Assembly (NCBI GenBank): GCA_007376265.1 | Contig: VMFW01000005.1 | Location: 198-64,197, forward strand | Direction: 5' to 3' | Length of the DNA: 64,000 nucleotides | DNA from: Parcubacteria group bacterium Gr01-1014_20 | Lineage (GTDB): Bacteria > Patescibacteriota > Minisyncoccia > UBA6257 > 2-01-FULL-56-20 | Part shown: positions 12,852 through 43,510 of the stretch, one piece after another | Position numbering within the stretch: the stretch's first letter is position 1 | Layout: each line of letters begins with the position of its first letter | Position numbers and translations under genes: made by a program | The notes under the pieces: generated by a model | Seen by the model: the letters and a program-made list of their open reading frames with translations, nothing else | What the model was told of the DNA's origin: nothing | The model's database searches: none

Positions 12852-13553
12852 TTACCATTCTTTGATGGCTTTTTCCCAGCGTTCTAAATTACCACAATCA
12901 TACCACCGTCCATTTTCGAATTTGTAGCCGATTAACTTTCCGGCAATAGCGAGTTTGGGAAAAACGTCTTTTTCGATCATTAGGAAATCTTGGGTGAGAT
13001 CGGCGTAATCGAAAACCGAGGGTTCAAGGATGTAAAGCCCCGAATTTATAAACTCCGAAGGTGGGTTTTCTGGCTTTTCTAAAAATTCAGTAATCTTATG
13101 GCTGTTCATGACGGGAACTCCGTATTCTTCTGGATTCTGAACCTTTACGAGAGCAATAGTGGCGACGGGTTTTTCGCTCTCATGAAAACTTTTGAGCGCA
13201 GTGAGATCAAAATCTTTGAGTTCATCACCATTTGAAAGAATAAACTTCTCGTTACCCAACCAATCGCGAAGATTTTTTAACCACCCAAAAGTGCCGCTTG
13301 GTTTTTCCTCGAAGAATATGCTAATCTTGGCATTAGTTAAATCTGGAGTCCAGATTTTTTCCCACCTCGAAAAATCCAGTTCGTGACTACGACTAACCAA
13401 CACACCGATATCGTCCACGCCGTGGCGAGAAAGAAGATCGATGAGGTGATTCAGAATTGGTTTTTTCTTGACGGTAAGCAGGGGTTTGGGAATCTCGTAG
13501 GTAATCGGACGAAGGCGCGTCCCCAGGCCTCCAGCTAGAATGATGGCTTTCAT
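12852..13553 (-). CDS. sugar-phosphate nucleotidyltransferase
   Basis: MKAIILAGGLGTRLRPITYEIPKPLL G-loop. 233 aa. Confidence 0.8.
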   Translation of the reverse strand: MKAIILAGGLGTRLRPITYEIPKPLLTVKKKPILNHLIDLLSRHGVDDIGVLVSRSHELDFSRWEKIWTPDLTNAKISIFFEEKPSGTFGWLKNLRDWLGNEKFILSNGDELKDFDLTALKSFHESEKPVATIALVKVQNPEEYGVPVMNSHKITEFLEKPENPPSEFINSGLYILEPSVFDYADLTQDFLMIEKDVFPKLAIAGKLIGYKFENGRWYDCGNLERWEKAIKEW

Positions 13554-13580: not shown

Positions 13581-15059
13581 ATGATCAGAAAAATAAAGAC
13601 CTTCCTCTTTACTAACCAGACCAACCGGCAGACCATCGCCAAGAACACATTTTGGCTGGGAATAAGCAACATTGGTGGTCGTTTGATCAAAGCGATCATC
13701 ATTGTGTACGCTGCGAGGGTCCTGGGAGCCGCCGAGTGGGGAGTTTTCTCTTACGCTGTGACTTTGACAGCTTTTCTTACAGTTTTCACGGATTTCGGTA
13801 TCAATTCAATATTAGTAAGAGAATCATCCAGGATAGAAAGCGCCGAGGAGAGATCTAGACTTTTATCAACGTCGTTTTTGATTAAGTGTCTAATGCTCGC
13901 ATTCGGAGTGATCTTGATTATTTTTGTGGCACCCTTGATGACAAGCATTGAAGGAGTTAAGGAAATACTACCGATTGTGGCTTTTATTTTGATCTTTGAC
14001 ACGCTCCGGGAGTTCGGTTTTGCCCTAAACAAAGTCTTCGAGCGGATGGAACGGGAGGCCGGGCTTTTTATATTGACGAATGTAGCAATCGTGGTTTTTG
14101 GTTTTGTTTTTCTCGCAATCAGTCCGACCATTAAAGCTTTTGCCTATTCGTACGCCATAGGAACCGGACTAGGGATGTTGGCCACAGCCTGGATGCTCAA
14201 GAAGAGCATTGGTAAGATTTTTTCTGATTTTAACAAAAAATTCGTAAAACCCATTTTTTTGACGGCTTGGCCATTTGCAATATCGGGGGTCTTAGGAATC
14301 TTGATGATTAACACGGACATTTTAATAATTGGAAATTTGCTTTCAGCTGAAGACGTGGGATTATACTCGGCGGCGGACAGGATTATTCAGATCTTGTACG
14401 TTCTGCCAAGCATGGTGGTTGGTGGTATTTTGCCAACTTTTTCAAGACTGGCAGTTACAAACGGTAATAAAATGCGATTGACGATGGAAAACGTGATCGC
14501 ACTATTGCTACTCGTAGCGGTCCCAATATCAGTTGGAGGGTTTCTTTTCGGAGAAGAAATTATTGCTCTTCTTTTCGGTAATAGTTATATGGGGGCCGCT
14601 TCTTCTTTTCAAATTTTGGCGTTGACTTTGATGTTTAATTTTCCAGCGGTTATTTTGAGCAGCGCTATCTTTGCCTACAATCGTCAGAAGGCTTTGATCG
14701 TTAACGCGGCGGTGGCGGGTGGGGCGAATGTGGCACTGGACTTGATTTTGATCCCGACCATGGGAATCTTTGGTTCAGCAATCGCAACTTTCTCGGCTCA
14801 GATTTTCAGCAATATTTACTTGTGGAGCAAGATGAAGGGTATTAACTACTTTAAGGTTTGGCCTTATTTAAAAAAGGTGGTAATTGCGACGGCAGTAATG
14901 ACGGTTTTTATACTGGTAATGAAGTGGCTGCATGTGGGGATAGGTTTTGGAATTCCTACGGCCGTCTTGATTTACTTCGGCACACTATTGTTCTTGAAAG
15001 AAAAATTAATTTACGACCTTAAGTCGGTGTGGCATTCAACCTTCAAACCAGTAGTTTAG
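13581..15059 (+). CDS. wzx: Wzx-type oligosaccharide flippase (polysaccharide biosynthesis protein, MOP superfamily)
   Basis: 492 aa with ~12-14 TM helices. N-terminus QTIAKNTFWLGISNIGGRLIKAIIIVYAARVLG is typical of PST/Wzx. Confidence 0.75.
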   Translation: MIRKIKTFLFTNQTNRQTIAKNTFWLGISNIGGRLIKAIIIVYAARVLGAAEWGVFSYAVTLTAFLTVFTDFGINSILVRESSRIESAEERSRLLSTSFLIKCLMLAFGVILIIFVAPLMTSIEGVKEILPIVAFILIFDTLREFGFALNKVFERMEREAGLFILTNVAIVVFGFVFLAISPTIKAFAYSYAIGTGLGMLATAWMLKKSIGKIFSDFNKKFVKPIFLTAWPFAISGVLGILMINTDILIIGNLLSAEDVGLYSAADRIIQILYVLPSMVVGGILPTFSRLAVTNGNKMRLTMENVIALLLLVAVPISVGGFLFGEEIIALLFGNSYMGAASSFQILALTLMFNFPAVILSSAIFAYNRQKALIVNAAVAGGANVALDLILIPTMGIFGSAIATFSAQIFSNIYLWSKMKGINYFKVWPYLKKVVIATAVMTVFILVMKWLHVGIGFGIPTAVLIYFGTLLFLKEKLIYDLKSVWHSTFKPVV

Positions 15060-15883
15060 GAAGAAAAAACCACTTTTTTGATCCTAGAGAGAACCGGATT
15101 GAGTGTTTTTTTGATGGCGTCTGGAAGTTGTGTGTAGAGATAGTAAGAACAAACGAAGAGGAGGGCTTTGGGGTAGCGGGGGTATAGTTTTCGATAACGA
15201 TCAACAATCCTTATCGCTGAGGAAGCAGCTTCTTTTTGCCTACTAAATGACATGCCCCCTTCCCACATTTGATATTTAGTAAAGTATTCCTGAAAGTTAT
15301 AGAGCTTGCCCTTTAATCCTATTTTTAACCAAAACTCCCAATCAGCAAACTGAAGCATAGACTCATCGTATAGGCCTATTTTTTTGGCTAGCGCGAAACG
15401 GAATACGGAGGTGGCATTTACAATCGGATTGGCCACAAGGGCATTTTTTTTAATGTCCTCATCTTTTTCAGGCTTGAAACTTTTTATTTTTTCTTCTCCG
15501 TTTTTATCAGCAACAACGAATCCCCCGCCACAGCCAACATAATCTTTATTTTCGTCGAGAAATCGAACCTGTTTCGCTAGTTTTTGGGGATCAATCCAAT
15601 AATCATCATCGTCTAAAATGGCGATATACTCACCCGTGGCTTCCTTCAGGCCGAAGTTGGAAATTTTGGCGATGCGACCAAAATGGGGGCCTTTGAGGTA
15701 CTTAATCCGACTGTCTTTCTCTGCTAGGCCTAGGACTACTTTTTCGGTTTCATCAGTGGAGCCGTCGTCGGCAACGATTAACTCCCAATCTTTGAACGTT
15801 TGGGTTAAGACACTTTCTATCGCCCGACTAACAAACTGGACTCGATTGTGAGTGGCAATCAAAACAGTAACTTTGGGTTGCAT
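15056..15883 (-). CDS. glycosyltransferase family 2
   Basis: VTVLIATHNRVQFVSRAIESVLTQTF...ADDGSTD...DDDD motifs. Confidence 0.8.
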   Translation of the reverse strand: MQPKVTVLIATHNRVQFVSRAIESVLTQTFKDWELIVADDGSTDETEKVVLGLAEKDSRIKYLKGPHFGRIAKISNFGLKEATGEYIAILDDDDYWIDPQKLAKQVRFLDENKDYVGCGGGFVVADKNGEEKIKSFKPEKDEDIKKNALVANPIVNATSVFRFALAKKIGLYDESMLQFADWEFWLKIGLKGKLYNFQEYFTKYQMWEGGMSFSRQKEAASSAIRIVDRYRKLYPRYPKALLFVCSYYLYTQLPDAIKKTLNPVLSRIKKVVFSS

Positions 15884-15977: not shown

Positions 15978-16727
15978 GTGATCACGCTTTTAGCGATTAT
16001 GGGGCGCGGTATTCAGAAAACTGAGGGCGCCGGTGGTTTTTTCGGTTGGTCGTTAACCGAAGACCTGGAGGTGATGGAAGAAGATGGAGCTCACGCTGTT
16101 TATCGAAAACCAGTCGATGATGAAAATGTAAATTGTATGATTGGCGGCGGTCAGCTCAATATTTTGGCGGGAGCGGAGTTAATCTTGACTTACAGACCAA
16201 GGGTGGTCGTTTGCGCTTACGGACCTAGGTCCCAGTACTTGCGAGAAGTGGATGGGCGGAGCGAGAGCGAAGTAATGTCTAACGCCCTTCTGCAAATCCT
16301 TCCGATGTCTGGCCACTGCCCGCCGTTTTTGATGTCGCGCTGGGGCAGTGACAACGACCTGCCTGGACCATCAAACACGAAAACAGAGGTTGGCTACATT
16401 CTTGATTTAGCTTTGAACCAAAGCAATCGACGGGTAGGAATTGTAACGGTGGGCGTGCATTTGCCGAGAGTGATTCTCTTTGCGAAAGAACACCTGGAGA
16501 GCGAGCGTTTTAAGGATCAAAACCTTGAAATCAATTTCTTTTCGAGCGAACAGGTGCTAATGGAATCTAGCCCTGCGGTTTTCGCCCCAAGAGTGACGGC
16601 CCTTCACAGCTCAAGAGCTTACCGGAGAAATGCTGAACGAGAAGCTCGCGGGATAGAGGCTATTCTCTCTGGCACTTACGGTCAGGGATACGAGGCCTGG
16701 AGACCATTTAATGGAAAGAAGGGATAG
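15978..16727 (+). CDS. DUF218/YdcF/ElyC-like protein
   Basis: 249 aa. SESEVMSNALLQ...GPSNTKTEVGYILDL...VGIVTVGVHLPRVILFAKE resembles the DUF218 core (SEA..M...S.NT.EN...VTS..HM.R). GTG start with AAGGAGG RBS. Confidence 0.45.
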   Translation: MITLLAIMGRGIQKTEGAGGFFGWSLTEDLEVMEEDGAHAVYRKPVDDENVNCMIGGGQLNILAGAELILTYRPRVVVCAYGPRSQYLREVDGRSESEVMSNALLQILPMSGHCPPFLMSRWGSDNDLPGPSNTKTEVGYILDLALNQSNRRVGIVTVGVHLPRVILFAKEHLESERFKDQNLEINFFSSEQVLMESSPAVFAPRVTALHSSRAYRRNAEREARGIEAILSGTYGQGYEAWRPFNGKKG

Positions 16728-16730
16728 CGG

Positions 16731-17006
16731 ATGCTTGCCACCACATTTGGGTATGTAGCGGCGGTTACGGGAACATTTCTCATGCTACCCCAAGTCATCA
16801 AATCCTGGAGGACGAAAAGAGTGGAAGACTTGGCGATAGGCACGGTGATTCTCTACTTTGTAAACTGCTTGCTTTGGCTCATCTATGGAATTTTGATCAC
16901 CGCAACGCCTGTGATTGTGGCCAATGGCATTGGGCTTTTGGTCAGCATTTTCCAGGTAGCCATCAAGGTGAGGTATGGAAAACAAGGAGGGTTGAGTGCC
17001 AATTAG
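16731..17006 (+). CDS. SemiSWEET / PQ-loop sugar transporter (MtN3 family), 3-TM unit
   Basis: 91 aa. LPQVIKSWRTK PQ-loop motif with three predicted TM helices. Confidence 0.65.
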   Translation: MLATTFGYVAAVTGTFLMLPQVIKSWRTKRVEDLAIGTVILYFVNCLLWLIYGILITATPVIVANGIGLLVSIFQVAIKVRYGKQGGLSAN

Positions 17007-17733
17007 AGGCATCGCGCTTGACGCAGAGGGGGTGATGTTCGACTTTGAACGAGACGGGCACCACCTGGCGCATCGGAAGGTAGCCGCAGATCTAGGAGTG
17101 ACGCTGTCTGATATTGAAGCGCTTGAGGCTATCCCCAATTTAGTGGGAGGGCCCGGTAAACTCATTGCCAAACAGATTCACAATCTTGTAACCGAGAGAT
17201 TGGGGAGTTGCAGTTTGACACCCGAAGAAATCGAGGCTAAGAGCCGAAAATACTTCAAAGAGCTTTTCCTCAAAATGGCTTCGGGAGAGGTGAAGATTGA
17301 ACCTCGCCCGGGACTTCATGGAGCGATCTGTTTTTTCCGGAGCATAAATATTCCGGTTGTTGTTGGATCTTCGACCTGGCCCGAAGAATTCTGGATTTAC
17401 TGGTTTCGGACAGGACTGAAAGGCGCGTTCCCTAGCCTACAAGTAGTCCTGGCTAGCGAGGAAAATGGTATTCGGCATAAACCGGAACCAGATATCTTCC
17501 TCCGTACCGCCGAACTCATGGGTATCGGTCCGAAAGAACAGTTGATTTTCGAGGATTCACAGCGCGGAGTAGTGGCCGGAGTAGCCGCTGGATCAACGGT
17601 CATCGGAATGACAACCTATGATCATCCTCGAGAAATCATCCGTCTCTACGAAGCTGGAGCTAAACGAGTCTTCTCGGACTGGCGAGAAGTAAACTTACGC
17701 TCTTTGATCGACAACCTGAACTCGAGAAAGTAA
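16996..17733 (+). CDS. HAD-superfamily hydrolase (subfamily IA, beta-phosphoglucomutase/phosphatase-like)
   Basis: IALDAEGVMFDFE (DxD-like motif I region) and later ...FEDSQRGVVAGVAAG. GTG start with AGGAGGG RBS. Confidence 0.6.
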   Translation: MPIRGIALDAEGVMFDFERDGHHLAHRKVAADLGVTLSDIEALEAIPNLVGGPGKLIAKQIHNLVTERLGSCSLTPEEIEAKSRKYFKELFLKMASGEVKIEPRPGLHGAICFFRSINIPVVVGSSTWPEEFWIYWFRTGLKGAFPSLQVVLASEENGIRHKPEPDIFLRTAELMGIGPKEQLIFEDSQRGVVAGVAAGSTVIGMTTYDHPREIIRLYEAGAKRVFSDWREVNLRSLIDNLNSRK

Positions 17734-17777: not shown

Positions 17778-17981
17778 AGCTTTTGAGATATTCTTCAACC
17801 TCTCGGTATTTTTCCATGGTGTCGATACCCCTTGAATACTCACCACACTCGTAGCCGTAGAAGTTTTTGCCTTGGTCAATAACGGCGGGAAGAAGTTGTT
17901 TGCCAAGTTCGTAGGGTTGATTTTTTGGGATGTACGACAAAATTTCTTTTTTCAAAATGAAGACGCCTCGCAGGCGGTGGG
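17778..17981 (-). pseudogene. out-of-frame C-terminal part of a sugar nucleotidyltransferase domain, continuing the gmhB-fusion ORF after a frameshift
   Basis: Translation in an alternative frame gives ...FILKKEILSYIPKNQPYELGKQLLPAVIDQGKNFYGYECGEYSRGIDTMEKYREVEEYLKS*. This is a typical NTP-transferase C-terminus and ends exactly at the terminator. Confidence 0.5.
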
Positions 17982-18857
17982 CTAGTCGTCGGTGAGCTTG
18001 GTGCGTTGCATGCCAATGGGATCTTCCTTAGTCCAAAAGTTTTCAGCCATAGTGGTGTAGTCAATGAGGCTGACCATGTCACCATAGATAAGATAGAAGA
18101 GGTCGCCAATCTTACCCTCGAAGCTCTTCGCCCCTCCTGCAGTTCCCAAAATTTCTGCTTCCAAGTTGTAGTTGATCTTCACACCCCATTTGGAGCCATC
18201 GCCAAAGTAGTTCTGAATAACTTCTGGCAAATGGTGGAGGTTGATGAAGAACTCGCTCACTCCGTGACGCTTAAACTGATCAATGTTCCACTCGAGGAGA
18301 GGCTCTTTAACCGTAAAATTTGGCTTTATATGCTTAAAGTTTTCGTCGAGGGCGTGTCCTGGACCGGTTTTTACTAAAACGGTCTTAAGACCGGCACGCT
18401 TACCAGCAACCACATCGATCATGGCGTCCCCCACCATAAAGCTTTTCTTAGGATCAATGTTGAATTTTTTGAGAGCTTTCAGGATCATTCCGGGGGCTGG
18501 TTTGCGACAATTACATTTGATGCGATACTTTTTGACGTCGGCGTTTGGATGGTGCGGACAGAAATAAGCCGCGTCAATGCGGGCGCCAGATTGCCTTAGT
18601 TTTTCTTTCAGGTTATCGTGAATGACTTCTACTTCTTTGGGCGTAGCGAGGCCTCTTGCGATAACGGGCTGGTTAGAAACCAAAAAAACTAAAAAACCAT
18701 TGTCGTTCATGGTTTTAATCGCCTGGCTCGCGCGAGGGAGAAGTTTTAACTCTGCTGAGCTCCGCATGAGCTCAAAATGTTTTATGACTGTGCCATCACG
18801 ATCCAGAAAGAAAGCTTTTTGCTTTTTTAACTTGTTTGAGTTTGAACGGATTCCCAT
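17982..18857 (-). CDS. gmhB: D,D-heptose 1,7-bisphosphate phosphatase (GmhB, HAD-IIIA) fused to an N-terminally truncated sugar nucleotidyltransferase domain
   Basis: N-terminal ~175 aa FFLDRDGTVI...CNCRKPAPGM...MVGDAMIDVVAGKRAG is GmhB-like. The remainder, EPLLEWNIDQFKRHGVSEFF...EILGTAGG...LIYGDM, matches the middle of NTP transferases but lacks the GxGxRL loop. The reading frame breaks at 17982. Confidence 0.65.
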   Translation of the reverse strand: MGIRSNSNKLKKQKAFFLDRDGTVIKHFELMRSSAELKLLPRASQAIKTMNDNGFLVFLVSNQPVIARGLATPKEVEVIHDNLKEKLRQSGARIDAAYFCPHHPNADVKKYRIKCNCRKPAPGMILKALKKFNIDPKKSFMVGDAMIDVVAGKRAGLKTVLVKTGPGHALDENFKHIKPNFTVKEPLLEWNIDQFKRHGVSEFFINLHHLPEVIQNYFGDGSKWGVKINYNLEAEILGTAGGAKSFEGKIGDLFYLIYGDMVSLIDYTTMAENFWTKEDPIGMQRTKLTDD

Positions 18858-19468: not shown

Positions 19469-20197
19469 TTAGGACTCGTAGAGGGTGTAGCCGACTTTTT
19501 GGCCATCCTCGTAAAACATCTTAACGGTTTCGATCGAGAGCGTGTGGTGGTCATAGCCCACCATAGCTAGTTTTTTCAAGATGTCATGAGTAACGGTAAT
19601 GATATGGGCGCCAATTTCTTCGGCCTGATAGATATTGTAGAGTTCGCGGGTGGAAGCCCAGAGGAGCTCAAACTTCGGATATTTTGAAATCATTTCTTTG
19701 GCTTGGCGCATAATCGGCATGGGGTCGACGCCGGTATCGGCAATGCGGCCGGCAAAGACGGAGATAATAGCTGGGTTTTCCGGATTTAATGAGTTCACAA
19801 CCGTCTCAACTTGAGGAACGGTGAGGATGGCGGTCACGTTAAGCTTCACGCCGTTTCCCGAGAGTTTTTTTATAAGTCCGGCCGAAGACTCGCCCTTAGT
19901 ATTGGCGACCGGGATCTTTACGTAAACATTCGGAGCCCAGGCGGCGATGATTCTCGCCTGACGTTCCATCTCGTTGAATTCATCTGAGAAAACTTCAAAG
20001 GAGATGGGCTTGTCTTTAATGAAGGAGAGGATGTCTTTGGCAAATAAGGCATAGTCGGTAACACCGGCTTTGCGCATGAGCGTGGGATTGGTGGTTAGAC
20101 CCTTAATAAATGACTCCTTGGCTAGGGCGATCATGCCATCGCGCTCGGCGCCATCGGCAAAGATCTTTACCTTTAATTCTTCTACCTTTTTAGGCAT
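19469..20197 (-). CDS. transaldolase / fructose-6-phosphate aldolase family (short TalC/Fsa type)
   Basis: 242 aa. VKIFADGAE...GLTTNPTL motifs. Confidence 0.75.
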   Translation of the reverse strand: MPKKVEELKVKIFADGAERDGMIALAKESFIKGLTTNPTLMRKAGVTDYALFAKDILSFIKDKPISFEVFSDEFNEMERQARIIAAWAPNVYVKIPVANTKGESSAGLIKKLSGNGVKLNVTAILTVPQVETVVNSLNPENPAIISVFAGRIADTGVDPMPIMRQAKEMISKYPKFELLWASTRELYNIYQAEEIGAHIITVTHDILKKLAMVGYDHHTLSIETVKMFYEDGQKVGYTLYES

Positions 20198-20236: not shown

Positions 20237-21244
20237 TTAGAGTCTGATACTCTTCTTACTTTTTGACGAGACGTAGATGGCCTCAACAATCTGGTTGGCC
20301 CTTAACCCATCTTTGGAAGTGCCTACTATTTTTGCTTTTTTGTTTAATGCTTTCAAGAAATTTCCCCACTCTTCTTCCCAGCTTGTGTCTCTTCCGAACT
20401 CAAAAGTTTTCATACCTGGAACACCAAACTCTGGCTTTCTCTTGCCGAACATAAGCGTTTCTTTGCCGTAACTGCCACCTTTGCCATCAATCGTTAAAAA
20501 ACCTTTGTCACCGAAAATCTCAAAGGAGAACAGGTTTTTCCATTGTGTGGCGCTAACATGAAGGCTAGCCGTGACGGCTTTATTTTTCAAAATCATGAAA
20601 GCGTTGTCTTCGACCTTGGCTTTCCAAAACTTTGTTTCAACAGCCCCAAAAACTTCGTTGAACTCTCCGGCGAAGAAACGACAGAGATCGATGAGGTGAA
20701 CACCCTGGTCAAGCAGCTCGCCACCGCCCGACATGTCTTTACTAAAACGCCACTCATGCTCCATACCCTTTCTGCCGCCCTGGCCATACCTCCCCCTAAT
20801 AAACATGATTTTGCCAATACCCCCTCGATCAAAAATTTCTTTGGCTTTAATGATGGCGGCGTGAAAACGGTGGTTGAAACCTACTTTAACCAAGCGTTTG
20901 TATTTCAAGGCAGCGGCGATAATTTTTTTCGCTTCGGCGACATTCCGGCCGAAAGGCTTTTCGCAAAGAAGATGCTTGCCATTCTGCAAAGCTTCGATGG
21001 CGATCGGGGCTAAAAACTTATTGGGGACGGAAATAATAACCACGTCGACATCCTTCCGTTTGGCTAGCGATCGCCAATCTTTTTCGACTTGAGCTTGGTG
21101 TTTCTGGGCTAGAGCTTCGGCTTTTTTTATATCGATGTCGGTTACGGCGACAAGCCGACTACCTCGGGTAGCACTAATAGCCTCGGCTCGGCGGTAGCCC
21201 ATGAGACCGGAACCGACAATGCCGACCTTAATTATTTTTCCCAT
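20237..21244 (-). CDS. Gfo/Idh/MocA-family NAD(P)-dependent oxidoreductase
   Basis: MGKIIKVGIVGSGLMGYRRAEA...EKP Rossmann N-terminus. 335 aa. Confidence 0.75.
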   Translation of the reverse strand: MGKIIKVGIVGSGLMGYRRAEAISATRGSRLVAVTDIDIKKAEALAQKHQAQVEKDWRSLAKRKDVDVVIISVPNKFLAPIAIEALQNGKHLLCEKPFGRNVAEAKKIIAAALKYKRLVKVGFNHRFHAAIIKAKEIFDRGGIGKIMFIRGRYGQGGRKGMEHEWRFSKDMSGGGELLDQGVHLIDLCRFFAGEFNEVFGAVETKFWKAKVEDNAFMILKNKAVTASLHVSATQWKNLFSFEIFGDKGFLTIDGKGGSYGKETLMFGKRKPEFGVPGMKTFEFGRDTSWEEEWGNFLKALNKKAKIVGTSKDGLRANQIVEAIYVSSKSKKSIRL

Positions 21245-22068
21245 TTGATTCTTCTTAGGGTAAAGGCATCACTTCGACTGATTTTTTCTACCTCCTCTTT
21301 GGTCCAATCATCGTATTTGTCCCAAACAGCACTCAAGAATTTTCCCGTAAGGCCGTCGGAGCCAGATGAGGCCAAAAAGAGGCACAGGTCTGCGGCTTTT
21401 TCCGGGGAGACTCCGCCGTCTTTCTTTTGTTTAAGTAGTTCTTCATATTTTTCTTTTCCCAGTTTGCTCTCGCCAGCCGATAGGGCATCCTCTAAGAATT
21501 TGGTGTTGACCGGGCCGGGAGCAATGCAGTTTATATCAACATTATAGCCTTTAACTTCGGCGGCAAGGGTCTCGGTTAGTCGAACAATTGCCCCCTTCGA
21601 AGAGTTGTAGGCACTAAAATTAGGAAGGGGGCCGTCACCGCCACCGGAAAAGTTGATAATCTTACCGGATTTTCTTTCGATCATTTTCGATAAAACTGCT
21701 TGAATCATTTGAAAAGTTCCAAACACGTTGATTTCGTAAGTTTGCTTCCAATGTTTAATGTCAACTTCAGCCGAAGGGCCGATGGGGCCATAAATGCCGG
21801 CCGAATTAACCAAAATGTCGACGGGCTTAAAAGTTTTTTCGGTTTTTGAAACCAAGGCCAGACAGTCTTCGATTTTGGAAACATCGGCTACCTGGCAGGC
21901 GACTTCAGGAGAAATTGTTTTTAATTCTTTGAAGGCCCTCACGAGTTCATCTTCTCGCCGAGCCGAAATCATGACACGGGCGCCTTCTCTTAAGTAGGCC
22001 TCGGCTATCTTAAAACCGATGCCGCCACTACCGCCCGTAATTATGGCTACCTTACTTTTTAGCTTCAT
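21232..22068 (-). CDS. short-chain dehydrogenase/reductase (SDR)
   Basis: KVAIITGGSGGIG...NSAG...YNSSK catalytic pattern. Confidence 0.75.
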   Translation of the reverse strand: MKLKSKVAIITGGSGGIGFKIAEAYLREGARVMISARREDELVRAFKELKTISPEVACQVADVSKIEDCLALVSKTEKTFKPVDILVNSAGIYGPIGPSAEVDIKHWKQTYEINVFGTFQMIQAVLSKMIERKSGKIINFSGGGDGPLPNFSAYNSSKGAIVRLTETLAAEVKGYNVDINCIAPGPVNTKFLEDALSAGESKLGKEKYEELLKQKKDGGVSPEKAADLCLFLASSGSDGLTGKFLSAVWDKYDDWTKEEVEKISRSDAFTLRRIKWEK

Positions 22069-22071: not shown

Positions 22072-23382
22072 TTAATTTCGACCAGTACCTAAGTAGATAA
22101 AGCCGACTTTTTTGATTTCATCTTCTTTATCCCAAAAGAAATTGTTCGTGTCAAAGAAGAGGGCTCCGGGTTTTGCTAGAGTCGAGAGTTTTGATAAATC
22201 TAGGTTTTTAAAACTTGGCCACGGCGTTATAAAGATTAAGGCGTCAGCCCCCTCGACGGTTTTATATGGGTCCATGGAAAAGTCGAACTGGCCGTAGGTT
22301 GAAACCTCGGATATGTCCGCCTCCGGATCGTGAAGCTTCAGAATGGCGCCTAGTTCTTTTAACTCTTTGGCAACTTCCATAGAGCGAGAACGGCGAAGGG
22401 TTTTGGTGCCAACCTTGTAGGTGAGACCAAAGATACCGACCGTTTTGTCCGTTATTGAATTCAGGCAACTTTTTATTTTAGAGATAGCTAAATCTTTTCT
22501 GGATTCGTTCTTAGAGAAAACGTTTTTGATTATAGGTAGATCTAGGTCTCCTTCGCTCGCTAGACTCATCAGGATCTTTAGATCTCGCCCGAGAGTGGCG
22601 CCAGAAAATCCTAAACCAGCATCTAAGAAGGCTTTGGGTCCAATGCGAGGTTCGGAACGAAGGGCGCGACTAACAGAGAGGACATCCGCTCCGGTTTTCT
22701 CGCAGGCGTCGGCAATGTCATTTATAAAACTTACCGAAGTAGCCAGGAAGCTGTTTATGGCGTGCTTCGACATTTCGGCTGATGCCGGAGACATTTCCAA
22801 GAACTCGGCTTTCAAGCCAGAGAAGATATCTTTGAGTTTTTGAGAGGCGCTCATACTATCGGTGCCGATAATTATCCGAGTGGGATTAAAAAAACATTTC
22901 ACGGCTTCTCCGAGCCGAAGGTTTTCGGGGGTGTAGGCGTAGTCGAAGTTTAAATCGGGACGTTTTGTTTTTATGAATTCACACATTTTCTTAGAGGTTC
23001 CGATGGGGATTTGGCTCGTCATAACAATGAGAGTCGCTTCGCTGATAAAAGGGAGGGATTTTTCCAGGTTTTGCCAAATGGGACTTAGGTCAACCTCATC
23101 CGCGTCGTTGACTGGGGTGTCAAAAGTAAACCACAGAACATTGCAATTTTTTATTTCTTCAAAATTGGTAGAAAAACTCAACCGGCCAGCCGAAAAGTTT
23201 TTTTGGATCAGCTCCTGAAGTTCTGGTTCTGGCAGCGGGGGGAGGGCTTTTTTAAAATTATCGATTAGGGCGTTGTCTTCAGAAATTCCGACTACCATGT
23301 GCCCTAAATCGGCTAGACCGGCAGAGTAAATTTCACCAAGATGCCAAAGCCCAAGAATGGCAATTTTATATGGGGATGCCAT
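22072..23382 (-). CDS. nucleotide-sugar 6-dehydrogenase (UDP-glucose/GDP-mannose dehydrogenase family)
   Basis: 436 aa. N-terminal IAILGLWHLGEIYSAGLADLGH Rossmann with central and C-terminal UDPG_MGDP_dh-like regions. Confidence 0.7.
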   Translation of the reverse strand: MASPYKIAILGLWHLGEIYSAGLADLGHMVVGISEDNALIDNFKKALPPLPEPELQELIQKNFSAGRLSFSTNFEEIKNCNVLWFTFDTPVNDADEVDLSPIWQNLEKSLPFISEATLIVMTSQIPIGTSKKMCEFIKTKRPDLNFDYAYTPENLRLGEAVKCFFNPTRIIIGTDSMSASQKLKDIFSGLKAEFLEMSPASAEMSKHAINSFLATSVSFINDIADACEKTGADVLSVSRALRSEPRIGPKAFLDAGLGFSGATLGRDLKILMSLASEGDLDLPIIKNVFSKNESRKDLAISKIKSCLNSITDKTVGIFGLTYKVGTKTLRRSRSMEVAKELKELGAILKLHDPEADISEVSTYGQFDFSMDPYKTVEGADALIFITPWPSFKNLDLSKLSTLAKPGALFFDTNNFFWDKEDEIKKVGFIYLGTGRN

Positions 23383-23394: not shown

Positions 23395-24381
23395 TTAAAA
23401 ATCAACGAGAACCTTAGAGCCCTCAAAGTCGAAGCGATAGCTCATTTCTCTCAAGCCCAACCCTCTCATGGCTTCCCGGAACTTCTTTTTGTTGTCTTCG
23501 ATGTAGAAAGTGAAGAAGCCTCCTCCGCCAGCACCAGAAATTTTGCCACCTAAAGCGCCATTTTGCTTGGCGTTCTCGTAGATTTTATCGAATTTTTCGT
23601 TGGTTATGCCGCCGGCGAGCTTTTTCTTGTGAGCCCAGTGAGCATCGAAGAGTCGGCCAACTTCGGTAATATTGCCGGATTCTACGGCTTCAAGGATTTC
23701 GTACCCTAACTCCTTGATATAGTGCATGCTCTCAGTAACATCTTTGTTGTCTACCCTCAGGGCGCTTGAGGTACTAGTTAAAATCGGGTCGGCGCTTCTC
23801 GTGTCTCCAGTGAAAAAAATCAGAAGATTATTATTCAGATCGTCGGCTACCTCTTGTGAGACGTTAGCTTTTCTAACTTTTACTTTACCGTCTTTTTCAA
23901 TTTCGAGAACCGTCAATCCTCCGAAAGCGGCCATATAGCCGTCTTGTTTACCGATGGGTCTTTTTAAGACTTCGGCTTCCACCCGAAAGTCTTCTTCGGC
24001 TAAATCTCCCAGAGAGACATAGTCCCTTTTTAAAACGTGGAGGGCGTGCAAGAGACCCACGGTGTAACAGCTGGAGGAACCGAGGCCAGTGCCGGCTGAA
24101 ATATCGGCGATAGAGCTAATCTCAATCCCCTTCTCGACACCCATCATTCTTAAAACCTCGCGGGCGATTTCGTGCTGAATTTCGTCCAAGCGCTCGACGG
24201 TTTCGGCTTTGGAATACTTTAAGCGGATGAGGTCGTCGACAACCGGCCGATTCACATCAACAAACATATATTTGTTAATGCCAGCCGAAAATATAAAACC
24301 GCCATATTTCTCGTAGTAGGACGGCAGATCGGTGCCGCCACCGCCCAAGGTAACCCTGAATGGGGTGCGAGTGACAATCAT
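23395..24381 (-). CDS. GHMP-family sugar kinase, HddA-like (D-glycero-D-manno-heptose 7-phosphate kinase family)
   Basis: MIVTRTPFRVTLGGGGTDLP...GTGLGSSS GHMP motifs. Paralog of 44333..45328. Confidence 0.65.
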   Translation of the reverse strand: MIVTRTPFRVTLGGGGTDLPSYYEKYGGFIFSAGINKYMFVDVNRPVVDDLIRLKYSKAETVERLDEIQHEIAREVLRMMGVEKGIEISSIADISAGTGLGSSSCYTVGLLHALHVLKRDYVSLGDLAEEDFRVEAEVLKRPIGKQDGYMAAFGGLTVLEIEKDGKVKVRKANVSQEVADDLNNNLLIFFTGDTRSADPILTSTSSALRVDNKDVTESMHYIKELGYEILEAVESGNITEVGRLFDAHWAHKKKLAGGITNEKFDKIYENAKQNGALGGKISGAGGGGFFTFYIEDNKKKFREAMRGLGLREMSYRFDFEGSKVLVDF

Positions 24382-24413: not shown

Positions 24414-25349
24414 CTATTTCAGGCGGCCAAGTTCTTTTTCTTTGCTTAGAAAGTCTACCAGCGCCTGGATTCCCTCTTCGATGCCGGTTTTTGGAGACCA
24501 TCCGATTTTTCTGGCTTCGCTTATGTCAGCTAGAGTAATTTGGGCTTCACCCGAGAGGTTAGGTTTAAAAACCGGATCAACACTAGAGGCTAGTAATTTT
24601 TTTATGACGTTATAAATTTCGAGGATGGAGTTGTTGGTGCCACTCCCAAGATTAAAAACCTTGCCGTCGGTTCTGGGGTCGGTAATACAAAGCAACATAA
24701 AATCGTTGAAGTCTTCGATATACAGGAAGTCTCGCCGCTTGGAACCGTCGCCGTAGATTATGGGTTGTTCGCCTTTGAGGAGTTTAATGATGAAGGCTGG
24801 CATGGATGGAGGAATGGTGCGCCGATAGTCTTGCTTAGAACCGTAGACACTAAAGGGTCGGATGCCGGTTGAAACAACGCCGTGAAACTCGGCGTACTTT
24901 CTTGCAAACAGATTGCCGCAAACCTTACTAACGGCATAAAAACTGTCGGGGGCGACGTTGGCTTCTGGGGTCGGAAAGATATCAATGCCTTCATAAACAG
25001 CGGAAGACTCGGCATTGACAACTTTGCTCACTTTAGCTCGGCGAGCGGCTTCGAATACGTTCGCGGTTCCCACGACGTTGATATCGGCAGTTTCAACTGG
25101 ATCTTCTTGGCAGTCCTCAATGCAGTTTTTGGCCGCTAAGTGAAAAACGGCGTCAACCCCGTGGAATAGAGGGTATATATCTTTGGATCGGATATCGAGT
25201 TTGTGAAAATCGACCCCCTTAGGAATCTGCTCGAAGACACCATAGGACAAGTTATCGATGCCTAAAACTTCGTAGCCGCTACCCAATAACCGATCGGCAA
25301 GGTTCGAACCAATGAACCCGGCGACTCCGGTTACGAGAACCTTTTTCAT
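24414..25349 (-). CDS. NAD-dependent epimerase/dehydratase (UDP-glucose 4-epimerase-like)
   Basis: MKKVLVTGVAGFIGSNL...YAVSK. Confidence 0.7.
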   Translation of the reverse strand: MKKVLVTGVAGFIGSNLADRLLGSGYEVLGIDNLSYGVFEQIPKGVDFHKLDIRSKDIYPLFHGVDAVFHLAAKNCIEDCQEDPVETADINVVGTANVFEAARRAKVSKVVNAESSAVYEGIDIFPTPEANVAPDSFYAVSKVCGNLFARKYAEFHGVVSTGIRPFSVYGSKQDYRRTIPPSMPAFIIKLLKGEQPIIYGDGSKRRDFLYIEDFNDFMLLCITDPRTDGKVFNLGSGTNNSILEIYNVIKKLLASSVDPVFKPNLSGEAQITLADISEARKIGWSPKTGIEEGIQALVDFLSKEKELGRLK

Positions 25350-25395: not shown

Positions 25396-26265
25396 CTACA
25401 AGCGATCATACTTACTCTTTCGGTAGGATAGAAAAAGGGGCATAAGAACCCAGGAAAAGGGCGGGGTCTTTAGGAAGATCCCCAAGATTTTCATTCGGCG
25501 CCAATGAGCTCTAAGCACTTCGATAGTTTTTGAATACTTCTCGCGATCGGTTTTGGAAAACCAAGATTCAACAATATCCAACATTTTCGGAAATTGCTCG
25601 GCGGTGCGAATCAGGTAGTCACTTCGGTAGGAGTCGTTAGTCGTGTGAAGCCGGAGTAGACCAACAACTTTGTCGAGGTAGTAAAATTGGGCACCGTGAT
25701 AGGCAAGATTAATCCAAACATAGTGTTCATCGCAGGCGTACCAGCCCTCTTCGAAAGCGCCGAACTTATCAAAAAACTCTTTTCTCACCAAAACAGTTAG
25801 AACATTAATGAAATTTTGAGGGAGAACTTGCTCGAAAATGTTGCCAGAAAATCGGGGTTGATCGTTTTTGTAAAGAGTAGCGGTGTCGCTCCCGTAAAAA
25901 TAGTGAATCTTAGCGTAGGAAACACCACATTCGGGATGAGCTTCCATGAAGGCAACTTGGTCTTCGATTTTATTTTTTAGAAAAATATTGTCGGCGTCCA
26001 AGAAAGCGACGTACTTACCGGCGGCCTGCCGGATGCCAGCGTTTCTGGCTGAAGCCATTTTCTGATTGGTCTGGAAGATGTATCGGATGCGACGATCTTT
26101 TTCGGCATAGCTTTTTGCGATGTGGGCGGTTGCGTCAGTCGATCCATCATCAACGATAATTAGTTCCCAATTCGAATAAGTTTGGGCGATGACGCTTTCG
26201 ATCGTCTCCCGCAGAAAACCGGCAGCGTTGTAGGCGGGAATAACGATGGAAACCAGAGGTTTCAT
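25396..26265 (-). CDS. glycosyltransferase family 2
   Basis: Track ORF 25396..26397 trimmed to internal start MKPLVSIVIPAYN (26265). The longer form would overlap the upstream gene by ~130 nt. IVDDGSTD...DADN motifs. Confidence 0.7.
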   Translation of the reverse strand: MKPLVSIVIPAYNAAGFLRETIESVIAQTYSNWELIIVDDGSTDATAHIAKSYAEKDRRIRYIFQTNQKMASARNAGIRQAAGKYVAFLDADNIFLKNKIEDQVAFMEAHPECGVSYAKIHYFYGSDTATLYKNDQPRFSGNIFEQVLPQNFINVLTVLVRKEFFDKFGAFEEGWYACDEHYVWINLAYHGAQFYYLDKVVGLLRLHTTNDSYRSDYLIRTAEQFPKMLDIVESWFSKTDREKYSKTIEVLRAHWRRMKILGIFLKTPPFSWVLMPLFLSYRKSKYDRL

Positions 26266-26266
26266 C

Positions 26267-40801: not shown

Positions 40802-41863
40802 TTAACTGTTAGTTGATTTTTCTCTGGCCAGATTCCACTCGATTGTTCTTTTTAAACCCTCTCGTAAAGCCACCTGGGGCTTGAAGCCGAATTCATTTTC
40901 CATCTTTTTCATGCTCAAGCAAACTCTAGAGGGGGCACCAATAACACTTGGGTCTTTTCCTGGTCCCGATACTACCATAGTTCCCATAAGCTCTCCGATT
41001 AGTAGGGCTAGCTCTTTGATGGTTACCTCCTCTTCTTGTGAGCCTACATTATATATCGCGTCTTTGGAAAATAGCAAAATGTTTAAGAGTTGCCTTAGGA
41101 CATCTGACATATAACAGAAACTCCTTAGATCCCTTCCGTCGTCGACCATGTTGATGACTTTTTCTAGATGGGCTTTTTTCATAAACTGACTAATGACTCG
41201 TTCGTCATCAAAGCTTAAGCCTGGTCCATAAGACAGTGCAGGACGGGCGATTCGAATATTAAGACCGTATTTTTGCATATAGCTTAAGCATAAGACTTCA
41301 GAGAGTCGTTTTGACTCAATGTAGCAAGCACGGTTGTTGGTAATTGAACTTGAGCCTTCATACGTTTCTGGGGTAGGAAAGCTTTCGGGAGTCGGTGAGC
41401 CGTAAATTTCGCTACTGCTTAGGTAAAGAATTCTGGCGTGAGGGCTGGTTTTGACAGCGCTTTCTAAGATGCTCTTTATGCCGATGTAGTTTACATCAAT
41501 GGTTCGAACGGGATTTTCCAAGAATGCGGCTGGGGCCGCATAGCCAGCGGCGTGGACAATAAAGTCGTATTTTTCATTGTAAACGTTGGGTTCTGATAGA
41601 TCTTTATTGGTAATCAGGAAATTGTTTGCATTCAGAAGAGCATATATCCTAGAGTTTTCTGTGATCTCGCTTTTAGTGACTAGGTGAACCTTGGTTTTGT
41701 AGTTAAGTTCTTCATTTAGGTAACTAAAAAAATAGGCGAGATAAGACCCAATAAGACCATTAGCTCCAGTGAGTAGGACGCTTTTGTTTCTTAGACCCAG
41801 AGAGTTAGTGCAGTCGGATATTTTTTTGACGTCCTCTAGTACTATTTTATCGATTAATTTCAT
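40802..41863 (-). CDS. NAD-dependent epimerase/dehydratase
   Basis: VLLTGANGLIGSYLAYF Rossmann motif. 353 aa. Confidence 0.65.
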   Translation of the reverse strand: MKLIDKIVLEDVKKISDCTNSLGLRNKSVLLTGANGLIGSYLAYFFSYLNEELNYKTKVHLVTKSEITENSRIYALLNANNFLITNKDLSEPNVYNEKYDFIVHAAGYAAPAAFLENPVRTIDVNYIGIKSILESAVKTSPHARILYLSSSEIYGSPTPESFPTPETYEGSSSITNNRACYIESKRLSEVLCLSYMQKYGLNIRIARPALSYGPGLSFDDERVISQFMKKAHLEKVINMVDDGRDLRSFCYMSDVLRQLLNILLFSKDAIYNVGSQEEEVTIKELALLIGELMGTMVVSGPGKDPSVIGAPSRVCLSMKKMENEFGFKPQVALREGLKRTIEWNLAREKSTNS

Positions 41864-42752
41864 GAATGGCTTTCACTATACCTTCTTTGGTCAAACCATT
41901 AGCTTGACAGTGCTCCTCGTAAGAGCCGTAGTTGAGCAAAAATTTGTCCTCAATCCCCAATCTAGTATGTCGGAATGGGACCTTACTGCAAATTCTGGAG
42001 ATTTCATCTCCGATACCGCCAATAACGGAGTGTTCCTCTACGGTGACAAGTTTCTTGGTTTTTCCGAGACTTTTTATTAAAGTTCCGACAGAGTCCTCAG
42101 AGATCGGTTTGATGGTAGTTAAGTAGATTAGGTCACATTCGATTCCTTTTTCTTTCAGTTCGCTGACGGCGTTATTGGCATTCTCAAGTTGTGGCCCAGC
42201 AACAACTAAGGTAACGTCTTTGCCATTTATAATAGTTTCGACTTCGCCAAACTTGGGGTTGGTTTTTAAGCCGTGAGACTTGGCGGGGAGACGAAAGTAG
42301 GTAGGATGTCCGTTCGAGTAGGTTTCCCTAAATAGGGTGTCTAACTCGTGGGGAGCGGCGGGATATACGATCTGCATATTAGGTAAGGATCGCAATATGG
42401 CAATATCGTCGTATGAATGATGGGTGCATCCCAGTGATGCGTAGTCAAAGGCACTCCCGACGCTAACTATGTTTACCCCCACATCTTGATAACAAAGGTC
42501 GTCTTTTACCTGCTCGAAACATCTTTCGGTTACAAAGGGGGTGATGCTATGAACAACCGGAAAGAGGCCGCCCAGAGCTAGTCCGGAAGCCATACTCATC
42601 ATTGACTGCTCCGCCACGCCCATATTATAAAAACGGGTTCTGTGACTTTCCTCAAAATCTTTGAGTAGGAAGTGGCTAATATCGCCGATTAGAACAACCA
42701 GTTTGTCGTCTTTTCCTAATTCAAGTAGGGTTTTGGCAAATTGTTTTCTCAT
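41847..42752 (-). CDS. transketolase, C-terminal subunit (split two-gene transketolase)
   Basis: 301 aa. Pyrimidine-binding and C-terminal domains. Overlaps the N-terminal subunit gene by 4 nt. Confidence 0.75.
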   Translation of the reverse strand: MRKQFAKTLLELGKDDKLVVLIGDISHFLLKDFEESHRTRFYNMGVAEQSMMSMASGLALGGLFPVVHSITPFVTERCFEQVKDDLCYQDVGVNIVSVGSAFDYASLGCTHHSYDDIAILRSLPNMQIVYPAAPHELDTLFRETYSNGHPTYFRLPAKSHGLKTNPKFGEVETIINGKDVTLVVAGPQLENANNAVSELKEKGIECDLIYLTTIKPISEDSVGTLIKSLGKTKKLVTVEEHSVIGGIGDEISRICSKVPFRHTRLGIEDKFLLNYGSYEEHCQANGLTKEGIVKAIHEINR

Positions 42753-43510
42753 TTGAGTACTTCTTTTTTAAACATCTCCAGCTCCAGCTCTGTTGGTGCT
42801 TTGTGGTGCCAAGTAAAGAAGTTACTTTCCATCTCTCTAATACCCTTACCTTTCGTGGTGTTTGCTATGACACAAAGTGGTTTTGGGTGGTTGATATTGT
42901 TTTTATTGAAGAGTACTTCGGCTATTTCGCTGAGATCGTGGCCGTTTATTTCTCGGACTTCCCACCCGAAAGAAAGAAATTTGTCTTTCAGGTTTATTGA
43001 TGTCATTGCCCGGGTTTGAGATTTATTATTGTCAATAATAGCTACTAGGTTTAGGAGTTTGAGTTGTTCGGCATACATGGCTGTTTCCCAGATCGTTCCC
43101 TCGTTGGTTTCGCCGTCGCCGATGATGCAAAAGACTCTTCCCGGTTCGTTTTTTATTTTTTTTGAGAGAGCATAGCCGGCGGCGATTGGGAAGCCGTGAC
43201 CCAAAGACCCTGATGAGTTTAGTATGCCAATCTCGGGATTCTTGTGGGGGTGACCTCCCAAAACAGAGTCGTACTTACAAAAGGTGTCTAGCTCACTTTT
43301 AGTAATGTAGCCAAAATGAGCCAAAACGGCGTATAGAGCGGCGCTGGCGTGACCCTTGCTTAAAAAGAACTGATCGTTTTTTGTTTTATTTAGATGTATT
43401 GAGTAAAGGAGCTCCACAACCGAGAGGGCGCTTGGTATGTGTCCTTCTCCGGCCCGAGAAACCATCTCCAAAATGTTGAGCCTAATACCTTTTAGGTCTT
43501 CTTGGGGCAT
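42749..43510 (-). CDS. transketolase, N-terminal (TPP-binding) subunit
   Basis: 253 aa. LSKGHASAALYAVL...GSLGHGFPIAAGYAL...GDGETNEG TPP-binding motifs. Confidence 0.75.
   Translation of the reverse strand: MPQEDLKGIRLNILEMVSRAGEGHIPSALSVVELLYSIHLNKTKNDQFFLSKGHASAALYAVLAHFGYITKSELDTFCKYDSVLGGHPHKNPEIGILNSSGSLGHGFPIAAGYALSKKIKNEPGRVFCIIGDGETNEGTIWETAMYAEQLKLLNLVAIIDNNKSQTRAMTSINLKDKFLSFGWEVREINGHDLSEIAEVLFNKNNINHPKPLCVIANTTKGKGIREMESNFFTWHHKAPTELELEMFKKEVLK

Follow-up and report, generated by a model that had tools for sequence, protein, structure and literature searches.

What does a transaldolase do inside a polysaccharide locus? The question is raised by an open reading frame (ORF) of 242 amino acids (aa), here called Tal, on a stretch of 64,000 nucleotides (nt) of contig VMFW01000005.1 from Parcubacteria group bacterium Gr01-1014_20; this whole stretch is referred to as the window, and its features are collected in Table 1. 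An initial annotation, made from the letters of the window, had placed Tal beside heptose-type genes and had suggested that, together with a split transketolase further along, it supplies sedoheptulose-7-phosphate (S7P) to glycan synthesis in a small genome that may lack a complete pentose phosphate pathway. The guess of a small genome was right, as the window is a contig of the Parcubacteria, within the Candidate Phyla Radiation (CPR). Comparison with related loci showed that Tal belongs to the conserved core, with translational coupling of its genes, of a nucleotide-sugar cassette that has spread widely and horizontally. The enzyme families of this cassette are those of the lincosamide sugar pathway, and its product may be an octose.

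A conserved cassette around the transaldolase gene

In the window, eight genes are transcribed in the order extended short-chain dehydrogenase/reductase (SDR) epimerase, GHMP kinase, nucleoside diphosphate (NDP)-sugar dehydrogenase, classical SDR, Gfo/Idh/MocA oxidoreductase, Tal, SIS isomerase and HAD/GmhB-like ORF, with intergenic gaps or overlaps of at most 39 nt. The SIS ORF starts 27 nt after Tal on the same strand and is followed by the HAD/GmhB-like ORF (17982-18857). Five CPR homologues of Tal with 70-95% identity ('Minisyncoccia', 'Paceibacterota' and 'Liptonbacteria' among them) all lie in the same module. When metagenome contigs were scanned with a Tal profile, at least 584 relatives were obtained, from which 80 loci were kept and searched with the window proteins; neighbours were counted in the 26 non-redundant loci with 3 kb or more of sequence to either side of Tal. 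The SIS isomerase was present in all 26 of these loci, the HAD phosphatase in 25, the GHMP kinase and a nucleotidyltransferase in 24 each, the epimerase and the Gfo/Idh/MocA oxidoreductase in 20 each, and the classical SDR in 19. The NDP-sugar dehydrogenase was found in 11 and is thus an optional module. Tal, SIS isomerase, HAD phosphatase, GHMP kinase and nucleotidyltransferase form an almost invariant core, and the epimerase, the Gfo/Idh/MocA oxidoreductase, the SDR and the NDP-sugar dehydrogenase are frequent tailoring genes.

Across the Tal loci, the GC content varies between 33 and 69%, and the genes come in two different orders. In CPR the order is epimerase, GHMP kinase, NDP-sugar dehydrogenase (where present), SDR, Gfo/Idh/MocA, Tal, SIS, HAD, nucleotidyltransferase; the commoner order is epimerase, NDP-sugar dehydrogenase, SDR, Gfo/Idh/MocA, GHMP kinase, nucleotidyltransferase, SIS, HAD, Tal. 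A profile of the commoner-order type retrieves proteins of Burkholderiaceae metagenome-assembled genomes (MAGs), on whose contigs the nine cassette genes overlap or abut (1-17 nt). The Burkholderiaceae cassette is flanked by genes for a fusion of a methyltransferase with a family 2 glycosyltransferase (GT2), for GtrA and for a DUF2142 membrane protein, with a GT9 heptosyltransferase and the 3-deoxy-D-manno-octulosonic acid (Kdo) transferase WaaA adjoining. Plasmid 3 of Lawsonia intracellularis PHE/MN1-00 carries the full cassette (locus L094; NC_008014.1 13334-31918), annotated there as SIS domain-containing protein, HAD-IIIA hydrolase, transaldolase, nucleotide sugar dehydrogenase, SDR, Gfo-Idh-MocA, galactokinase and nucleotidyltransferase. 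In Rhizobium jaguaris CCGE525 the cassette, Tal included, is borne by the replicon pRCCGE525c (locus L095; 2.58 Mb, a chromid), and a large replicon of Rhizobium sp. CB3060 bears it as well.

The initial annotation had tied Tal to the heptose-type genes next to it, and Tal is indeed no chance neighbour, given that the Tal-SIS-HAD-GHMP-nucleotidyltransferase synteny is kept in CPR relatives and across phyla. Flanking synteny unrelated to glycan genes, which had been named as the outcome that would speak against the tie, was not seen in the relatives; the opposite was found.

At E<=1e-30, the SIS family comprised 351 cluster representatives (clustered at 50% identity), and natural fusion proteins occur among them in the combinations Tal-SIS, nucleotidyltransferase-SIS, HAD-SIS and SIS-HAD (P0452, P0380, P0394, P0374, P0378, P0372, P0388, P0389 and P0420; these are metagenome sequences, in which gene-calling artefacts are possible). 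Fusions between cassette enzymes would fit proteins that act in succession within a single pathway.

In RefSeq, the Lawsonia Tal is labelled 'pentose-phosphate shunt' and the kinase 'galactokinase'. Lawsonia, a cultured obligate intracellular pathogen of pigs, and R. jaguaris offer experimentally tractable entry points.

Family and catalytic residues of Tal

Tal has an ATG start and is, as initially annotated, an intact short transaldolase. It matched Pfam TAL_FSA (PF00923) with E = 4.9e-40 and 138 bits (threshold 27). With the NCBIfam model TIGR02134 'transald_staph', which covers short transaldolases of the Staphylococcus/Coxiella type, it scored 333.4 bits over model positions 2-235 of 236 and passed the curated cutoff of 281.95; the Burkholderiaceae cassette Tal scored 332 bits with the same model. 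When Tal was aligned to the transaldolase of Thermoplasma acidophilum (3S0C), the residues D15, E68, K94, T122, F148, R151 and R184 were all conserved. The corresponding residues of 3S0C with these roles are Asp6, Glu60, Lys86, Thr110, Phe132, Arg135 and Arg169; K94 matches the Schiff-base lysine, D15 and E68 the catalytic Asp and Glu, and F148 the Phe of transaldolases, at whose position fructose-6-phosphate aldolases have a Tyr. Because the active-site residues of 3S0C are conserved, Phe148 included, Tal is a catalytically plausible class I transaldolase, and neither a fructose-6-phosphate aldolase nor a relic. It has the fold, the Schiff-base lysine and the catalytic residues in common with the solved short transaldolases 3S0C and 1VPX (Thermotoga maritima), and it has those defining features of TIGR02134 transaldolases that can be checked in a sequence.

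Homologues with 56-95% identity to Tal were found within the same cassette; cassette Tals are ~52-95% identical to the window Tal and strictly linked to SIS and HAD genes. Members of the TIGR02134 type outside the cassette, with 45-48% identity to the window Tal, occur in Lactobacillus crispatus (in a phosphotransferase system operon), in Treponema saccharophilum and on a Streptomyces plasmid, in contexts that are catabolic or isolated. A Staphylococcus aureus Tal on plasmid records shares 48% identity with the cassette Tal of Burkholderiaceae. The three non-cassette Tals with known context fall, in a rough tree, outside most cassette Tals.

A broken cassette nucleotidyltransferase gene

The initial annotation had seen a GmhA-like isomerase and a 'GmhB fusion' directly next to Tal. 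The order of these genes was borne out, but the fusion is the product of a deletion that joined the HAD domain to a fragment of the cassette nucleotidyltransferase. In the closest relative (locus L005, Tal 95% identical), the HAD protein (193 aa) and the nucleotidyltransferase (241 aa) are encoded by separate, intact genes. Relative to L005, a 145-nt deletion takes out the HAD stop codon, the spacer and the N-terminus of the nucleotidyltransferase, of which the first ~32 codons are gone. An internal deletion of 85 nt leads to a frameshift at 17982, and the remaining nucleotidyltransferase is out of frame at 17982-17779. A tblastn search with the nucleotidyltransferase of locus L004 accordingly aligned it in two pieces in different frames (residues 33-139 and 169-236); the HAD proteins of L004 and L001 served as queries for the HAD part.

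Because of these two deletions relative to the intact L005 genes, the cassette nucleotidyltransferase is a pseudogene in this assembly. A bifunctional GmhB-nucleotidyltransferase enzyme was considered and rejected in view of the 145-nt deletion, the missing N-terminal residues and the frameshift. The deletions could represent real gene decay or an assembly error. With the nucleotidyltransferase broken in this MAG, the pathway is therefore either recently inactivated, or using another nucleotidyltransferase of the locus (12852-13553 or 43603-44355), or mis-assembled.

Comparison with heptose pathways

The pathway to GDP-D-glycero-alpha-D-manno-heptose, which serves S-layers, capsules and O-antigens and comprises GmhA, HddA, GmhB and HddC, draws on the same superfamilies as the cassette and uses them in the same order. 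It has no transaldolase, whereas the cassette has one. Ordinary heptose clusters, be it for lipopolysaccharide (LPS) core, S-layer, capsule, hygromycin or septacidin, are not known to carry a transaldolase gene. Burkholderiaceae and Rhizobium have a complete pentose phosphate pathway, and they make the ADP-heptose of their LPS without an operon-borne transaldolase.

All four shared cassette enzymes scored below the corresponding equivalog cutoffs. The SIS isomerase of the window obtained 54.4 bits with the gmhA model TIGR00441 (cutoff 209.45) and less than 55 bits with the best of four GmhA models; its Burkholderiaceae orthologue obtained 52 bits (cutoff 209), and the best GmhA match in the PDB was 38.5 bits. 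For the GHMP kinase, the HddA model (cutoff 600) gave 153.6 bits in the window and 178 in Burkholderiaceae. The HAD domain scored 145.9 bits with the GmhB model NF006506 (cutoff 178), and the nucleotidyltransferase 81.9 bits (intact L005 orthologue) and 69 bits (Burkholderiaceae) with HddC (cutoff 300). Judged by these scores, the cassette enzymes are not equivalogs of GmhA, HddA, GmhB and HddC of the heptose pathway. Among solved structures, the kinase is closest to the heptose kinases 3K85 and 4USK, and the SIS isomerase to GmhAs. Cassette SIS proteins are 55-78% identical across phyla and share, as a phylum-spanning signature, a 5-aa insertion in the loop that binds phosphate in GmhA. The cassette SIS isomerase has a GmhA-like fold, yet is not a GmhA equivalog.

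A far more GmhA-like, near-canonical paralogue of 193 aa is encoded in the same locus at 34010-34591 (minus strand). It scored 185 bits with TIGR00441, is only 24% identical to the cassette SIS isomerase, and is accompanied by a GHMP kinase of its own and by a nucleotidyltransferase that matches HddC best. Because this isomerase, a second GHMP kinase and an HddC-like nucleotidyltransferase coexist with the cassette, the latter is not the only heptose-type route of the locus. Another SIS copy of 160 aa (30894-31376, minus strand) matches only the N-terminal ~115 positions of the GmhA models and is 46% identical to the 34010-34591 protein; it may be a truncated paralogue.

Comparison with the lincosamide octose pathway

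A transaldolase beside an isomerase is the feature that sets the lincosamide GDP-octose pathway of Streptomyces lincolnensis and S. caelestis apart from heptose pathways, and the cassette has the same feature. In work of Sasaki in 2012, Lin in 2014 and Wang in 2020, LmbN is reported to isomerise octulose 8-phosphate, from which LmbP, LmbK and LmbO reportedly make GDP-octose, the substrate for tailoring by LmbM, LmbL, LmbZ and LmbS. LmbZ and CcbZ are here assigned to the Gfo/Idh/MocA family. The transaldolase LmbR transfers a three-carbon unit from fructose-6-phosphate or S7P onto ribose-5-phosphate (R5P), giving D-glycero-D-altro-octulose (PMC5854111). The sugar genes of the lmb and ccb clusters encode a transaldolase, an isomerase, a galactokinase-like GHMP-type kinase, a phosphatase resembling heptose-bisphosphate phosphatase, a nucleotidyltransferase, an epimerase resembling UDP-glucose-4-epimerase, a nucleotide-sugar dehydrogenase and an oxidoreductase (PMC4351081, Table 2 and S1). 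Among their products, CcbL is a nucleotide-sugar dehydrogenase of 436 aa, and CcbZ/LmbZ is described only as 'C8 oxidoreductase' or 'putative dehydrogenase' (PMC4351081). GDP-octose is converted to GDP-lincosamide through LmbM, LmbL, CcbZ and CcbS (PMC5854111, PMC4351081, PMC12945683).

Compared at the family level, the same eight enzyme families are clustered in the cassette. The Lmb-type grouping of transaldolase, GmhA-like isomerase, GHMP kinase, GmhB-like phosphatase and nucleotidyltransferase is found in the window operon that runs from 25349 to 17779. From the Lmb-type tailoring set, the window has the epimerase, the NDP-sugar dehydrogenase and the Gfo/Idh/MocA oxidoreductase; an aminotransferase is absent from the cassette, and 15 of the 26 cassettes have no NDP-sugar dehydrogenase. 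Where it is present in the window, this dehydrogenase has 436 aa, as does CcbL, and it scored 304 bits with TIGR03026, above the cutoff.

The two systems also differ. The cassette lies in cell-surface glycan loci of CPR, Proteobacteria and Desulfovibrionaceae, whereas the lincosamide genes belong to an antibiotic cluster. Unlike the lincosamide pathway, the cassette has neither an LmbS-type aminotransferase nor a carrier-protein domain on the isomerase, and it has an extra classical SDR. Cassette Tals are of the TIGR02134 type and have 236-242 aa, compared with 222 aa for CcbR. PDB searches with the NDP-sugar dehydrogenase, the Gfo/Idh/MocA oxidoreductase, the SIS isomerase and the kinase returned generic relatives only and no lincosamide enzyme.

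A proposed octose pathway and its alternatives

Literature searches found no described transaldolase-GmhA-type cassette in polysaccharide loci or in CPR genomes. By analogy, the cassette can be viewed as a putative transaldolase-initiated pathway to an NDP-higher sugar for primary cell-surface glycans. Tal would be the dedicated first enzyme of this nucleotide-sugar cassette, with an entry role towards an octose or another higher sugar, an assignment that we prefer to the alternatives below and regard as evenly poised between right and wrong. It would move the C3 dihydroxyacetone unit of fructose-6-phosphate (or of S7P) onto R5P to form octulose-8-phosphate, which the SIS isomerase would convert to aldo-octose-8-phosphate. 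The GHMP kinase would then phosphorylate C1, the HAD phosphatase would take off the terminal phosphate, and the nucleotidyltransferase would produce NDP-octose. After remodelling by the epimerase and the oxidoreductases, a GT2 would put the octose into a surface glycan. As the cassette has no aminotransferase, one would expect a neutral octose, possibly a deoxy sugar, and not lincosamine. Extended to the whole, the proposal reads that the nine-gene cassette, with a dedicated transaldolase and a non-GmhA SIS isomerase as its signature, makes NDP-octose for surface glycans from Patescibacteria to Burkholderiaceae, Rhizobium and Lawsonia, as a widespread, unrecognised building block, and that the lincomycin sugar pathway arose by recruitment from this relative in primary metabolism; we advance this tentatively, at slightly below an even chance.

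Alternatively, Tal could be a dedicated source of S7P, made from fructose-6-phosphate and erythrose-4-phosphate (E4P), so that the SIS isomerase would yield heptose-7-phosphate (possibly the gluco and not the manno epimer) and the cassette a modified NDP-heptose. This would be a tidy example of a glycan operon with its own S7P-forming enzyme. The core neighbours are in the same families as GmhA, HddA, GmhB and HddC, the closest solved relatives of the kinase and of the isomerase act on heptoses, Tal passes a curated model that is annotated as pentose-phosphate transaldolase, and glycans commonly contain heptoses. No transaldolase at all is present in at least one complete CPR genome (PMC7143001), and in a genome of this kind a cassette-borne copy could be needed. 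Of the S7P supply suggested in the initial annotation, the pathway link to the heptose-type genes stands; the product, however, may not be S7P, as the genes correspond to those of the lincosamide octose pathway and the SIS isomerase is no GmhA equivalog. A pathway-specific product is favoured over S7P by several observations: the SIS isomerase is of a non-GmhA type, and it, the kinase and the nucleotidyltransferase lie far under the heptose equivalog cutoffs, the phosphatase too being below its own; the same locus has another isomerase that is closer to GmhA and comes with a separate kinase and nucleotidyltransferase; and Tal is kept in 26/26 loci, including those of Burkholderiaceae and Rhizobium with their full pentose phosphate pathway, one locus lying beside LPS heptosyltransferase genes. 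Heptose clusters are not known to carry tal. We hold S7P supply to be possible but rather unlikely. That a small genome thereby compensates for an incomplete pentose phosphate pathway, as had been suggested, is an unnecessary assumption, since the same cassette with Tal occurs in Burkholderiaceae and on the R. jaguaris replicon.

A housekeeping transaldolase of the pentose phosphate pathway that merely resides in the glycan locus, or hitch-hikes with it, would explain the TIGR02134 equivalog score, the distant family members that stand alone or in catabolic operons, and the presence of no second tal in the 64-kb window. It is hard to reconcile with tight, translationally coupled synteny across 33-69% GC and two gene orders, with the existence of Tal-SIS fusion proteins and with a tree in which cassette Tals mostly group apart from non-cassette members, the Lawsonia copy being unresolved at the base; we consider it very improbable. 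The narrower idea that such a gene came to lie in the locus by chance was rejected, being largely refuted by the synteny. The context evidence for an octose would equally suit other ketose phosphates, such as nonulose-9-phosphate from hexose-6-phosphate, an octulose epimer from arabinose-5-phosphate, or the reverse cleavage of a higher ketose, all leading to a higher-carbon sugar that is not of the lincosamide type, and transaldolases do accept several aldose phosphates (PMC5854111). Such a pathway has no precedent, R5P being the only documented acceptor in a case coupled to a GmhA-like isomerase, and we judge it improbable.

Several points weigh against the octose proposal itself. Tal belongs to TIGR02134, which is annotated as pentose-phosphate transaldolase and has distant members (45-48%) in catabolic or stand-alone contexts, so that ordinary S7P chemistry is compatible with its family. 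The cassette has no LmbS-type aminotransferase, and more than half of the cassettes are without the NDP-sugar dehydrogenase. Transaldolases are promiscuous, and whether E4P or R5P is the acceptor is not readable from sequence; precursor-supply duplicates do occur in biosynthetic clusters, and octoses are far rarer than heptoses in known glycans. CcbR has 222 aa, and outside the lincosamide clusters the protein that matched it best in 2015 was a transaldolase of Cellulomonas with 47% identity (PMC4351081); because of this length and this match, the cassette Tal is probably an analogue and not a close orthologue of CcbR.

The synteny result is solid and alters the annotation of such 'pentose-phosphate' transaldolases, whereas the claim of a C8 sugar rests on analogy. 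For metabolic reconstruction in CPR, a cassette transaldolase should not count as evidence of a complete pentose phosphate pathway. If Tal builds octulose-8-phosphate, eight-carbon sugars would be common in the envelopes of many uncultured and some cultured bacteria, beyond the lincosamide antibiotics. Genes now called 'transaldolase (pentose-phosphate shunt)', 'SIS domain-containing protein' and 'galactokinase' would then have a testable function, an evolutionary source of the lincomycin sugar pathway would be indicated, and a surface-glycan pathway would be flagged in Lawsonia intracellularis.

The split transketolase and other thiamine diphosphate enzymes

The initial annotation had grouped Tal with a split transketolase at 41847..43510. 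This transketolase is present but is not part of the Tal system, as a search of 88 related loci found no homologue of its N-terminal (TktN) or C-terminal (TktC) half closer than 10 kb to Tal. The two proteins scored 200 and 132 bits with NF004559 (cutoff 488), each covering only half of the model. The 3' end of the transketolase halves overlaps an extended SDR gene (40802-41863, ~350 aa), and TktN-TktC homologues with 58-63% identity on three unrelated contigs always form a TktN-TktC-extended-SDR triad. The triads are surrounded by genes for Wzy, a glycosyltransferase, a methyltransferase or an aminotransferase, with no Tal or SIS gene. A precursor-supply unit made up of Tal and the split transketolase was therefore rejected: the two are never together in relatives, and the transketolase has its own conserved SDR partner. 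The triad is probably a thiamine diphosphate (ThDP)-dependent system for the modification (tailoring) of nucleotide sugars, and not a source of S7P coupled to Tal.

Units of this kind with overlapping genes are seen in several CPR lineages (window 40802-43510, minus strand; locus L089, 7001-9688; locus L090, 7001-9733). Like the split transketolase and E1-type ThDP enzymes of nucleotide-sugar branching pathways, the window enzyme is composed of two subunits and is encoded in a glycan locus beside an SDR of the NDP-sugar 4,6-dehydratase-like kind. NDP-keto-sugars receive two-carbon branches from E1-like pairs, for example AviB1/AviB2, and for the ThDP tailoring enzymes of the window we infer a two-carbon transfer. 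A second, short ThDP pair is encoded at 46960-48234 (minus strand) and consists of an alpha-like E1_dh protein (236 aa) and a beta-like Transket_pyr protein (183 aa); its neighbours on the two sides are an SDR and an RmlC-like 3,5-epimerase. In L090, an E1 alpha/beta pair lies downstream of TktN-TktC.

The surrounding glycan locus

Tal lies within a glycan locus of ~44 kb (about 8505-52885) in which nearly all genes are co-directional, bordered by DsbA/VTT genes at one end and by RNase Y and phosphoglycerate mutase genes at the other. Family scans of the ORFs of the 64-kb window found no tal, tkt, rpe or rpi gene beyond those described.

Table 1. Features of the window discussed in the text, with positions in the window, strand and supporting evidence.
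Feature	Position	Strand	Evidence
Polysaccharide flippase, Wzx/MurJ type	13581..15059	+	Polysacc_synt and MurJ
GT2 glycosyltransferase, candidate transferase of the cassette sugar	15056..15883	-	Glycos_transf_2 1e-30
249-aa protein, 91-aa PQ-loop/SemiSWEET-like membrane protein (16731-17006) and HAD-IA hydrolase (16996-17733)	15978..17733	+	HAD match; tblastn
Remnant of the cassette sugar-1-phosphate nucleotidyltransferase (pseudogene)	17779..18305	-	tblastn, L005 DNA alignment
GmhB-like HAD-IIIA sugar-bisphosphate phosphatase domain, last ~10 codons deleted	18336..18857	-	HAD-IIIA models passed; tblastn; L005 alignment
Divergent SIS-domain aldose-ketose isomerase, 204 aa	18827..19441	-	SIS_2 1.8e-07
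Tal, proposed cassette entry enzyme	19469..20197	-	TAL_FSA, TIGR02134, 3S0C alignment
Gfo/Idh/MocA oxidoreductase, tailoring	20237..21244	-	Pfam GFO_IDH_MocA N- and C-terminal domains
Classical SDR, tailoring, probably ketoreductase	21232..22068	-	adh_short 1.5e-54
NDP-sugar dehydrogenase, UDP-Glc/GDP-Man dehydrogenase family, 436 aa, LmbL/CcbL family	22072..23382	-	Three UDPG_MGDP_dh domains
GHMP anomeric sugar kinase, HddA/WcbL-like, LmbP family	23395..24381	-	GHMP_kinases_N and _C
Extended-SDR NDP-sugar epimerase/dehydratase, GalE-like, LmbM family	24414..25349	-	Epimerase 2.5e-54
Transket_pyr + Transketolase_C half	41847-42752	-	Pfam-type domain match
Transketolase_N half	42749-43510	-	Pfam-type domain match

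Several neighbours of the operon recur beside the cassette in relatives. Homologues of the candidate GT2 with 48-88% identity adjoin it in seven related loci (L001, L005, L008, L010, L028, L048 and L065), and homologues of the flippase in the CPR loci L001, L004, L008 and L010. The PQ-loop/MtN3 protein, the HAD-IA hydrolase and the 249-aa protein, for which no family match was found, likewise recur beside the cassette in CPR relatives (L004, 9945-15147; L005, 8911-11029), and PQ-loop/MtN3_slv is annotated in both L004 and L005. Proteobacterial cassettes have GtrA and DUF2142 proteins instead, and Lawsonia a 'lysylphosphatidylglycerol synthase TM domain' protein.

The RNase Y and phosphoglycerate mutase genes at the edge of the glycan locus occupy window positions 52889-56336; in a distant relative (the context of P0172), a phosphoglycerate mutase of the iPGM type and RNase Y are followed by Wzy and other genes. 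This arrangement suggests a conserved chromosomal site, beside iPGM/RNase Y, for a highly variable glycan island. A tRNA scan of the window found no genes, and its composition profile was unremarkable. For a further GT2 ORF at 25396-26397 (minus strand), which overlaps the ORF at 26267-26974, the listed start precedes the conserved 'MKPLVSIVIPAYN' start by 44 codons; translation probably begins at the internal ATG near 26265.

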